A stretch of DNA of 64,000 nucleotides from Eledone cirrhosa (lineage: Eukaryota): NCBI GenBank assembly GCA_964016885.1, contig OZ024748.1:47678001-47742000 (forward strand). Direction: 5' to 3'. Under the pieces are notes generated by a model. It was given only the letters and a program-made list of their open reading frames with translations, did no database searches and was not told the DNA's origin. Made by a program: the position numbers and the translations under genes. Position 1 is the stretch's first letter, and the number at the start of each line of letters is the position of its first letter. Shown here piece by piece: positions 8,191-31,147 of this stretch.

Positions 8191-8547
8191 TATAAACGTT
8201 TGTATATGTATAATAAAGCCAAAACAATGCAGGTATGGACATAGAATAAAGAATGCAAATGCAAAAGATATTGTTGACAATAGTCTGTTACCTTAGATTT
8301 ATTTAAATGTCCTTAATTTTCGAGATAATATCTCTTCTTCGGAGGGAGATATTATCCGAAGAAGAGATATTATCTCGAAAATTAAGGACATTTAAATAAA
8401 TCTAAGGTAACAGACTATTGTCAACAATATCTTTTGCATTTGCATTCTTTATTCTATGTCCATACCTGCATTGTTTTGGCTTTATTATACATATACAAAC
8501 GTTTATACCTCATTACACAATGCATCAAGTGAACTATAACCTCCTCC
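8191..8547 (+). mobile_element. Fold-back Penelope-like insertion: 153-bp inverted arms plus 40-bp tail, hammerhead-like core at the centre
   Basis: 8191-8343 is the exact reverse complement of 8355-8507. The right arm starts CCGAAGA-AGAGATATTATCTC-GAAA-AT-TA. Flanked by (TA)n. Confidence 0.8.
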
Positions 8548-8947
8548 TATATATATATATATATAGCAGTTAAGAGGTTCCTTATAGCTGTATATCCTCC
8601 TCCTTCACCTCCACCTCCTCCTCACCCATATTTTCATCATCTTTCAACAAGTGTTTAGTGTTAAGCCTTTAACCCTTCAACAACTAATGCATGGCACCTC
8701 TCTCACATCTTCTGCTAGATGCTGATTAAACACTGAATCACTTTCTATCAAACACAAGCATGAATGTCTGTGTGTATGTGTATGTATATGTGTGTATGTA
8801 TATGTGCGCATGTGTTGTTGTCTATGCGTTAGATTGTGTGTGTTTGTGTTGGTGTGTGCTTGTGTTGGTGTCTTTAATAGCCAGTGTGCATATGCTTGCA
8901 CATGTGTTCCTCTATGCTTGTGTCTATGTGTTTGTAGCCTGTGTGTT

Positions 8948-9331
8948 TCATCATCATCATCATCATCATCATCATCATCATCAGTTTTACGGTTTCACGC
9001 TAGCATAGTGGGGGCTGGGTGGTTTTTTTTTGCCGTGGCACCTCCATGAATACTATACAGTGTGAACTTGGTGCTTTTTTTGCCGTGGCACCTCCACGAC
9101 CACTTTACAGTGTGGGATGGGTGTTCTTTTTGCCGGGGCACCTCCCCGACCACTTTGCAGTGGAATGATATGAACCCCAGTCCTATCATCTCATTTCTAC
9201 AGCTGAGTAAACTGGAGCAATGTGAAATAAAGTGTCTTGCTCAAGGAAACAACACATCACTCGGTCTGAGAATTGAACTCACAACCTTTCGATTGCAAGC
9301 CCAATGCTCTAACCACTAAGCCATGCGCCTT
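8948..9331 (-). mobile_element. Near full-length tRNA-derived CORE-type SINE
   Basis: Minus strand has A box TGGCTTAGTGGTTAG, B box GAGTTCAATTCTC, CORE-like CCTTGAGCAAGACACTT...CTCAGCTGTAGAAATGAG, subrepeats and a (GAT)n tail. Confidence 0.85.
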
Positions 9332-9499
9332 CTGTACTGTTATTTTCCTTGGTATTTTTCTTGCTGTAAATTTAGTTAGAGTTGAAGGGATTCTGATGGA
9401 AGAAGACCTATAATTTTTGTGACATCATTTTTATTAATTTATCAAGTACGAGAGTCAAATTGAAATCAGTAATACAGTAATAGCCTAAATACAGAAGCA

Positions 9500-9870
9500 G
9501 TTGAACATACAATGGAGAGAATGTGAGCAGTGTAGTAATGTGTGTATGTGTTTATATATATATATACACACATCACAAGATGCTTATATACACAGACACA
9601 CAGTTGAACACACAGTATAGAGAATGTAAGAAGTGTCGTGATGTGTGTTTATATATATATATATATATACACACAAATAAGAGGATGCTTATATACACAG
9701 ACACACAGTTGAACACACAGTATAGAGAATGTAAGAGGTGTAGTGATGTGTGTTTATATATATATATATATATATATATATATATATATATATATATATA
9801 TATATATATATACACACACACACACAGTATAGAGAATGTAAGAGGTGATGTGATGTAGCAGTGTTTGTAA
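9500..9870. repeat. ~105-bp imperfect tandem repeat (about 3 copies) with TA expansions
   Basis: ATGCTTATATACACAGACACACAGTTGAACACACAGTATAGAGAATGTAAGA at ~9580 and ~9685. Confidence 0.75.
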
Positions 9871-28285: not shown

Positions 28286-28499
28286 CAGTTTTTTCCGTTG
28301 TGTTGTAATATAAATATTACACACAGTAGATTATCAGCTCACGTAGAGTTTGCTCGACGGTTCCAGTTGTAGTTCCAAAAGTAATCCGGAGAAAAATAGA
28401 AAGATATATATATATATATATATATATATATATATATATATATATATATATATATATATATATATATATATATATACATCTATATATATATATATATAT

Positions 28500-29461
28500 T
28501 TCGTTTCTGAATTTGTTTAGCAAGATTCTTTATCTGAAATCGTGTGTTGAAACCGATATTGTTATACTTTGGGATTGTCATGTTGCCAATAAGAAACACA
28601 CGCACCAGTTGTTTCACTTCAATTTATTATATATTTATAAATTTACAAATTTACAAATCTATAAATTTCTGGTTGGTTGGTTGGTTGGTTCAACAACCAG
28701 ATAGTTGTTTATATATAGTCATAGTCCTTTCGTCACACACTCTGTGACCTTTTCAGTGACTGGGGATTCCTTTCTTTGTTTCTGTGCCTTTCCTTTCTTC
28801 TGTCCTACGGGGAACGGATAAATGAACACTGGCGAGACCTTCAAGATAATAAAGAATCATCTGTACTCTACCAACATGCTAAGATAGAACACAAGGGTAA
28901 ATTAGAGAACATAGAAATAAAAATAGAATCTACACACAGAAAAGATGCAATGTTTAGACAAATTACAGAGGCAATAAACATAAAAGAATTACAACCAAAA
29001 TTAAATAGAAAATATGAGTGGAACAGCAACATCACAACTTACAATTAAGGACAAAATGAAAACACACACACACATAGAACAAACAACCAACCAATAACAT
29101 GTAAATAAATAAATAAATAAACAAATAGATAAATGAACATAAACACACACAGACACCCGGATGTGGCGCATGCGCAAACTGAGCACACAACACACACACA
29201 GAAACAAAATGGCGTAGGACAGAAGAAAGGAACGGCACAGAAACAAAGAATGGAATCCCCAGTCACTGAAGAGGTCACAGAGTGTGTGACGAAAGGACTA
29301 TGACTATATATAAACAACTATCTGGTTGTGGAACCAACCAACCAACCAGAAATTTATAGATTTGTAAATTTGTAAATTTATAAATATATAATAAATTGAA
29401 GTGAAAGCAACTGGTGCGTGTGTTTCTTATTGGCAACATGACCCTCCCAAAGTATAACAAT
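28500..29461 (+). mobile_element. 5'-truncated Penelope-like element: inverted pLTR, GIY-YIG endonuclease C-terminus, pLTR
   Basis: 28809-29048 encodes ERINEH...LYQHAKIEH...RQITEAINIKELQPKLNRK. 28556-28809 is the reverse complement of ~29213-29463. Hammerhead at 29261-29305. TA flanks. Confidence 0.88.
29261..29305 (+). ncRNA. Minimal type I hammerhead ribozyme (CUA cleavage triplet)
   Basis: AGTCA-CTGAAGA-G-GTCAC-AGAGTGT-GTGAC-GAAA-GGAC-TA-TGACT; stems I and II are paired. Confidence 0.8.
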
Positions 29462-30917
29462 ATATATATATATATATATATATATATATACATCTATATA
29501 TATATATACATCTATATATATATATATACATCTATATATATATATATATATATATATATATATATATATATATATATATATATATATATATATATATATA
29601 TATATATATATATATACATCTATATATATATATATACATCTATATATATTTATATATAAAGAATGAATAATAACAGGTAGACATCATAAAAAGGTAATTT
29701 ATTCCGTGTGCTTACAAGTGTTTCCACGGTGGTACTGCAGCCTAGTTATGCTACGTGCAAATTCACAAGTACTTGCAGAACTCAAATATCCAATGCTGTG
29801 ACCACTGTTTCCTTAGAGCAGATATATATATATATATATATATATATATATATATACATCTCTCTCTCTCTCTCTCTATATATATATATATATACATCTA
29901 TATATATATATATATATATATATATATATATACATATATATATATACATATATATATATATACATATATACATATACATATATATACATATATCCATACA
30001 TATATATATATACATATATATATATACATATATATGTATACATATATATGTATATATATACATATATATATATACATATATATGTATATATATACATATA
30101 TATATATACATATATATATATATATACATATATATATATATACATATATACATATATATATATACATATCTATATATATACATATACATATATATACATA
30201 TATATACATATCTATATATATACATACATATATATATATATATATAAATATATATATACATATATATATATATATACATATATATACATACATATATATA
30301 CATATACATATATATATATACTTCTGATTAAGATTTAATCTCCTCCACACACTCCAAACCGTTAACGGCTGTTCCTTATTAAATTATTATAATTAATTCC
30401 TGTTAATCTCTACCTACATCATCCTAAATATCATCATTACTATTATTATTATTATTGTTGTTTTATTTTCAGATTTTAATCTCCTCTGGATAATATAATT
30501 AACATAAAATTTTAGTTGACTCGTAAAGAGACCTAATTAATTTGTGTTTCATTAAATAGAATTCTCTTGTTTATTTCCAAAGCCAAATTTTATGTAAAAC
30601 TGAAACTGAAATCTTCAGACAAGATTTTTATCTCATTTTCCCCAAAAATCTTTGTTTTTTCACCAACAAAGAATCAAAATTAAAAAAAATCTTATTTCAA
30701 TCTCTTTTTTTTTTTTTTACATATTTTTCAACAAATTAACTGTTTCTGTTTTAATTATATATACATACAAACACACACATAATATATATATATATATCAT
30801 CATCATCATCATCATCATCATCATCGTTTAATGTCCATCTTCCATGCTAGCATGGGTTAGACATACATATATATATATGTATATATATATATATATATAT
30901 ATATATATATATATATA

Positions 30918-31147
30918 TAGGAACGAGTAGGACCCCGACGGCTGAGCTCAAGCCATTTCGACGGCTAATTCTGGACTAAAAAAAAAAAAAAAAATTTTTT
31001 TTTTTTTTTAGTCCAGAATTAGCCGTCGAAACGGCATGAGCTCAGCCGTCGGGGTCCTACTCGTTCCTATTACCCACTCTACTACCCTAAGTATTGAGTA
31101 CTTTGGTGCGTTACGGTCCTCCTGGCTCCTTACCACATTTCCTTCGT
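30918..31147 (+). mobile_element. Fold-back insertion with an A17/T15 centre and ~78-bp tail
   Basis: Arms 30918-30994 and 30995-31069. The same family occurs at 1-14 and 56048-56100. Confidence 0.78.

Follow-up and report, generated by a model that had tools for sequence, protein, structure and literature searches.

Penelope-like hairpin insertions in Eledone cirrhosa with junctions that may trace the capped 5' end of the template RNA

We analysed a window of 64,000 nucleotides of the 3.0-Gb Eledone cirrhosa genome (assembly GCA_964016885.1, contig OZ024748.1, positions 47,678,001 to 47,742,000, forward strand), which harbors several hairpin-shaped insertions. These hairpins are short head-to-head insertions of Penelope-like elements (PLEs), in which an inverted, tail-less copy of the pseudo-long terminal repeat (pLTR) faces a forward copy followed by a tail. 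This insertion structure is already known, but in three families the junctions pile up at single-base hot spots and often carry an extra C. From these sequence patterns we consider it probable that the piles formed when two cDNAs ran off the capped 5' end of an uncleaved sense RNA and were then joined. Five fold-back insertions were confirmed in the window, each from a different high-copy PLE family, and the families are named by window position: A (8191), B (10090), C (11645), D (25191) and E (30918). The initial annotation of this DNA had described these five and ascribed them to the hammerhead ribozyme of the pLTR; all five are present, but a sixth hairpin at 10386-10442, assigned here to family F, had been overlooked.

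Arm ends were mapped in copies anchored by their tails, with 30 loci per family. The sets include the window copy and duplicated insertions (L100-L104, L074-L076), hairpin-biased copies of family C were left out of the breakpoint statistics, and the position-ordered sets of families A, B, C and E consist of the first 30 motif matches by position. P values are binomial against the stop rate in the following 100 nt, and positions are given relative to the hammerhead core, or to its G12 in family E. Nine of the 30 family B arms end at -6/-7 (p 4e-12) and 8 of 30 in family C at -8 to -10, a broad pile (p 8e-7), while 18 of 30 in family E end at -18 to -22, followed by none until -56 (p 4e-26). The piles lie at the A of a pyrimidine-A step, namely at -6 in B, -8 in C, and -18 and -22 in E. 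Only 1 of 30 family A arms ends within +2 to -33, and 11 are scattered over -34 to -64 (p 0.93). Genome-wide, hairpins with both arms at the hot spot number 326 in B, 2,325 in E and 70 in C, and a further 1,416 B hairpins end between +10 and -5; backwards-pattern controls for the B, E and C junction patterns gave 0. By comparison, 11 family A hairpins fold near the core (3,721 arms) and 10 family D hairpins near the cut site (2,223 arms). The annotated clustering of breakpoints at the ribozyme thus holds for B, C and E, where the piles are non-uniform, but not for A or D, which have none at the core. Likewise, the centres lie upstream of the cleavage site in B, C and E, but at that site in the D window copy. 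With so few comparable hairpins, the A and D copies of the window are rare cases; they probably belong to a scattered class and lie near the ribozyme mostly by chance. A clustering of D ends at the cut site was rejected because of the low number of such hairpins and because the majority of short D copies fold 6-20 nt beyond it, at a palindrome. A family A start near -96 was also discarded, since its ends spread over the region given above.

The letters at the junctions were counted by hand in the first 50 listed hairpins per family, near-duplicates included, and these counts replace an earlier pooled one. The first non-native cDNA letter is a C in 118 of 130 arms (70/73 in B, 21/24 in E and 27/33 in C). 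At least one such C occurs in 44 of 50 B, 15 of 50 E and 19 of 50 C hairpins, and 8 more E hairpins carry a C at the second site near -22. None of the 50 listed B hairpins has a blunt join. Fillers were examined in 40 of the 50 B loci, of which 38 could be oriented relative to the tail; the commonest filler is found in both orientations (10 CTG, 8 CAG) and on several subfamily backgrounds, so these junctions arose independently. The annotated idea that palindromes form repeatedly is borne out by this result. A few B junctions have a different structure: one uses the helix I repeat as a 6-nt microhomology (L322), four contain short re-copied pieces of the core, resembling repeated template realignment (L420, L424, L442, L449), and in one (L448) the forward arm is followed by inverted D-like sequence, which may reflect a template switch between families.

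Promoter-like boxes lie upstream of several of these sites. In B, a TATA box starts 30-33 nt before the hot spot, and in E a TATA-like box precedes the two sites by 25 and 29 nt. The arms of family F end 30 nt after a TATA box and ~48 nt upstream of a degenerate hammerhead-like core motif, a boundary drawn from 15 rows with the window copy included. By eye, no downstream promoter element was seen at +28 in B or E. A C opposite a 5' G that is foreign to the element is the expected trace of copying the m7G cap, and is known for L1. The TATA box and the extra C together suggest that the piles mark an RNA 5' end.

The most likely course of events is as follows. The pLTR promoter would start a capped RNA immediately ahead of the hammerhead in B and C and inside it in E, and an element protein would nick both strands of a (TA)n run. 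Two cDNAs would be primed at two internal starts, one at the tail end and the other at the tail boundary. If priming took place on the pLTR near the RNA 5' end, both cDNAs would be short and the cap G would be copied as C; their ends would then be joined via 1-3 nt of microhomology or short templated fillers. Copies begun from the 3' pLTR would truncate at scattered points. A Poseidon-type PLE cuts and extends both target strands in vitro, has two internal starts and uses uncleaved RNA (the accessible text of PMC11167929), and the two fixed 3' starts of each family here match those two internal RT (reverse transcriptase) starts. The transcription start of Drosophila Penelope is placed in the pLTR in the accessible part of PMC2377424. 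The arms of B, C and E run through the cut site, so their template was uncleaved, as the initial annotation had proposed. Of 17 family A insertions, 9 have an inverted arm that exceeds the forward arm in length, 2 have a shorter one and 6 have arms of the same length; a separate second cDNA is thus needed at least sometimes.

A single cDNA that reaches the same 5' boundary, folds back and primes itself, or priming on an antisense template as proposed for rotifer PLEs, seems unlikely to us as the general source of the hairpins. Symmetric junctions are common, often at short palindromes, and junction palindromes are interpreted as self-priming in the accessible part of PMC3846280. In addition, both arms share copy-specific variants, as expected if one arm was copied from the other. 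However, fold-back of a tail-bearing cDNA cannot give the longer inverted arms of family A, fillers of 1-3 nt are too short for a priming hairpin, and the extra C is placed where a sense-strand cap would be copied.

The model of the initial annotation, in which the folded and uncleaved hammerhead makes RT stall or switch template, we now regard as highly improbable. In B and C, the pile does coincide with the 5' edge of helix I, the arms include the uncut site, and uncleaved RNA is the main template in the accessible text of PMC11167929. This model nevertheless predicts a pile at the core of A, where almost no arm or hairpin ends, and at the 5' edge in D, which has no pile despite possessing the longest helices. 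Furthermore, the E stops fall inside loop II, and thus have no fixed relation to the hammerhead fold, and those of F lie ~48 nt upstream of the core-like motif. A polymerase that travels 3' to 5' meets the 3' side of helix I first, and a stall would be expected there and not once the whole fold has been copied. Finally, the extra C and the TATA spacing are left unexplained. The ribozyme fold is therefore probably not the cause of the RT stops.

We judge it even less probable that the boundary marks a 3' splice junction or some other hard stop, with the C being a terminal addition by RT. Arms at B -6, E -18 and F do stop on the A of an AG, which is preceded in B and E by a pyrimidine-rich stretch, and in the accessible part of PMC4209133 a D. 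virilis intron ends where helix I begins at its 5' side. However, an AG is lacking at C -8 and E -22, the 40 oriented B junctions show no common upstream-exon sequence after the C, and the TATA spacing fits a start site.

Several observations weigh against copying up to a capped RNA end. No TATA box is present at -30 of the family C site, whose pile is broad, and no extra C was seen in the F hairpins. The controls are small: an extra C was found at 0 of 4 non-native arm ends in D and in none of 11 hairpins in A. The far-side G of 3-nt fillers may be templated from the nearby core, and per-arm C counts thus overstate the number of independent events. It is also conceivable that RT adds a C wherever it meets a hard stop. 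In family C, 6 ORF-bearing (open reading frame) copies have a 5' pLTR that extends past the core, and none of them stops at -8; in 5 further copies the 5' end lies inside the tail. The full-length family A copy L241 starts near -39. The copy-specific variants shared by both arms, and the raw-read result given below, count on the same side. A search with family A sequence listed no RNA data set containing it. Among ORF-bearing C copies, those ending inside the tail (5 of 11: L265, L272, L284, L287, L290) have their 5' end between the two putative RT starts.

As the least probable explanation, the hairpins could be assembly fold-backs, or could have been amplified as a unit from a master hairpin. 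The arms of the A copy are identical, and some junctions recur exactly. Raw reads from three reduced-representation runs were aligned to one native family E stretch, and no strand-change joints appeared in the resulting listing. In these runs, most molecules end inside the E arm, with 5,559-6,778 ends per run at a single position that is probably a restriction site, and the missing fold-back joints are thus weakly informative. The reads do confirm the family E boundary: loose ends pile at E -18 (253, 255 and 305 reads in the three runs), with a consensus G preceding the A, and at E -22 (278 and 250 reads in two runs). By contrast with what a master copy or an artefact predicts, the arms differ in four of the five window copies, the inverted arms start at a fixed boundary in each family, and the fillers vary, with both orientations and several subfamilies represented.

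The hairpins are not chance products. Evenly spaced genome stretches totalling 600 kb contain 28 of them, an undercount since the scan missed the A and D copies of the window, and 200 kb of shuffled sequence contain 0; 10 of the 28 match families B, E or F. Such insertions have seeded near-perfect hairpins by the thousands in this genome, at least one per 21 kb sampled. Exact motif counts genome-wide are 3,721 for A, 6,570 for B, 1,615 for C, 2,223 for D and 17,171 for E. Since the anchors differ in length between families, the ratios between the genome-wide hairpin counts given above are rough. The family B count is skewed between strands (4,456 versus 2,114) and thus probably inflated by a duplicated block. 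An identical B insertion with identical flanks occurs five times within 500 kb (L100-L104, C4 ~204.1-204.6 Mb), which constitutes such a block.

The claimed PLE origin is supported by the parent of family A (L241), a pLTR-ORF-pLTR copy with a 631-aa ORF that matches Pfam RVT_1 (2.5e-12) and GIY-YIG (5.6e-05), the RT and endonuclease domains; its tail holds the likely ORF start. In family C, 11 of 30 loci with the N-terminal part of the ORF have a forward pLTR or tail piece continuing toward it. Tail-to-ORF continuity was found at 0 of 30 family E loci, where the flanks did not reach. The upstream ORF pieces of B, C and E are mutually homologous (E-B 40%, E-C 32%) and their ORF ends look endonuclease-like by eye, with GIY-YIG-like and Cys motifs. 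These pieces had no Pfam match, and a protein database search with the family E endonuclease returned no homolog; the three families may be Neptune-like. Family D consists of tandem 520-545 bp units on the same strand in which no ORF was seen, and is retrozyme-like. Also as annotated, the inverted copy lacks the tail. It starts at a fixed tail boundary in each family. In tail-anchored copies, this start lies at +152 in A, about +53 to +66 in B, +71 in C, +141 in D and +42 in E.

Native copies of A, C, D and E match a type I hammerhead descriptor comprising the core halves, helices I-III and a U-H cut site. The same stem totals were reached by 1 of 1,000 shuffles for A and by 0 of 1,000 for each of C, D and E. 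The family B copies L119 and L099, each mutated in helix I or the core, fail the descriptor, and the common sequence of the family folds as a hammerhead by eye. Rfam returned no hammerhead match in the native B, C, D and E stretches, nor among the best 150 rows for the window, giving just microRNA-type and simple-repeat matches below threshold. Family E has a U3-A8 core pair and a ~40-nt loop II that contains the putative start site, and family D has long helices II and III. The cleavage sites given for these families are predicted positions. The view of family E as a non-autonomous element without the first core half was dropped.

The features of the window are collected in Table 1. The shared architecture first described, with a 40-80-bp tail ending in (TA)n, applies to A, B, C and E but not to D, in which family sequence continues beyond the annotated (TA)n end at 25372. 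The fold centre was said to lie just 5' of the first core half in three copies; it does so in A, B and C, but the right-arm core is mutated in all three. The change at position 4 is the majority state of family A (30/49 copies). In E, the centre was correctly placed upstream of the second core half, being 18-22 nt before the true half and inside loop II. In D, the centre is not upstream of the cut but at the predicted cut site (+71/+72), and the motif formerly read as a core half is not that of the ribozyme, whose actual core is located further upstream and is missing here. The B and E tails share a ~10-nt motif, to which the C tail is less closely related, and which is a candidate protein-binding site.

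Table 1. Hairpin insertions of the window and their parts, in window positions. Cut sites are predicted.
Feature	Position	Strand	Remarks
Family A inverted tail-less pLTR arm	8191-8343	-	Begins at the fixed tail boundary, +152 from core; 153 bp, pairs with 8355-8507 with 0 mismatches
Family A junction	8344-8354		Largely repeats adjacent helix II sequence; putative templated filler
Family A forward pLTR arm	8355-8507	+	Minimal hammerhead-like fold; core 8356-8362, position 4 mutated; cut after 8384
Family A tail	8508-8547	+	40 bp; in long copies holds the likely start codon and continues into the ORF
Family B inverted tail-less arm	10087-10146	-	Ends at family hot spot -6, the putative transcription start; 10087-10145 pairs with 10147-10205 with 2 mismatches
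Family B forward arm	10147-10205	+	Type I hammerhead, fold read by eye; core 10152-10158, G8 mutated; cut after 10190
Family B tail	10206-10279	+	74 bp
Family C inverted tail-less arm	11645-11723	-	Starts at +71; pairs with 11726-11804 with 7 mismatches
Family C forward arm	11726-11804	+	Minimal hammerhead; core 11737-11743, G12 mutated; cut after 11766
Family C tail	11805-11868	+	64 bp; extends toward the ORF across a short TA run in ORF-bearing copies
Family D inverted tail-less arm	25191-25259	-	Starts at +141; ~25191-25259 pairs with 25260-25322 with 2 mismatches and a 7-nt gap
Family D forward arm	25260-25322	+	Begins at the predicted hammerhead cut site; contains no core
Family D tail	25323-25435	+	~110 bp, end at ~25435; exceeds the length first described
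Family E inverted tail-less arm	30917-30981	-	Starts at +42 from G12; pairs with 31006-31070 with 2 mismatches and an A/T-run loop
Family E junction	30982-31009		Expanded A-run/T-run at the family hot spot
Family E forward arm	31010-31070	+	From A(-18); of the hammerhead, just the 3' half is present; G12 at 31028, cut after 31050
Family E tail	31071-31147	+	77 bp
Family F sixth hairpin	10386-10442		Within an element at ~10292-10560; tail on the left arm here

Other repeats were observed in the window. A 310-bp element at 1113-1422 resembles a miniature inverted-repeat transposable element: its terminal inverted repeats are long and imperfect, and it is not flanked by (TA)n. By eye, L123, L137 and L171 contain similar sequence. 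TA-rich minisatellite and microsatellite arrays at 12500-15250, 25440-26110, 27070-28200 and 29820-30320 swamp the inverted-repeat and Rfam output. A short interspersed repeat bounded by (CAT)n, which often adjoins the hairpins, is found at 7940-8100, 8960-9340, 10780-11000, 11330-11620, 30800-30860 and 31530-31600.

With slightly less than even confidence, we go further and suggest that both cDNAs are strong-stop-like and copied the cap, that the mini-palindromes are a fossil map of RNA 5' ends, and that the template of inverted PLE copies is thereby decided as sense. If so, the mini-palindromes would give the transcription start of each family from genome sequence alone, and the question of a sense or antisense template would be settled for the sense strand. 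The hot spots with an extra C lead to exact predictions: transcription would start at the bases given, the C would depend on the cap, and the ribozyme fold would play no part. We found no report of cap-marked PLE junctions in the literature searched, in which subscription papers and supplements were poorly covered. In twin priming of L1, two target strands prime two cDNAs; in full-length L1 copies, an extra G marks the capped 5' end. L1 twin priming inverts a non-overlapping internal piece, whereas here both cDNAs would copy the same end, which results in a palindrome.

The origin of tandem and inverted PLE structures is named as open in the accessible texts of PMC8557442, PMC3846280 and PMC11167929, and the comparisons below extend to the accessible parts of the sources cited. 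Family D resembles non-LTR (long terminal repeat) retrozymes (bioRxiv 10.64898/2026.07.22.740005) in its tandem units, with a type I hammerhead in each and no ORF seen; it differs from them in its PLE-type inverted tail-less arms in (TA)n, and its mobilising parent was not found. The predicted folds share with minimal PLE type I hammerheads (PMC4209133) the core halves, a short helix I, an extra base before helix II and, in A and C, a palindromic helix III; they are unlike them in the core pair and large loop II of E and in the long helices of D. As in the insertion unit of endonuclease-bearing (EN+) PLEs (PMC8557442, PMC3846280), the inverted copy is head-to-head, the tail is at one end only, a palindrome occurs at the junction, the targets are (TA)n, and the parent of family A combines RT with a C-terminal GIY-YIG domain. 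Unlike the published units, those described here are reduced to 180-360 bp hairpins at thousands of loci, their tails measure 40-110 bp versus 30-40, and their junctions pile at one base with a non-native C, a feature unmentioned in the accessible descriptions. The in vitro study of Anolis Poseidon (PMC11167929) does not treat 5' junctions or inverted arms in its accessible text, whereas our 5' end is deduced from genomic junctions alone. The two systems are alike in that two internal RT starts bound the tail, which overlaps the ORF start (family A), and the cutting and extension of both target strands on an uncleaved RNA template observed with Poseidon correspond to the steps that may have generated the hairpins of E. 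cirrhosa.

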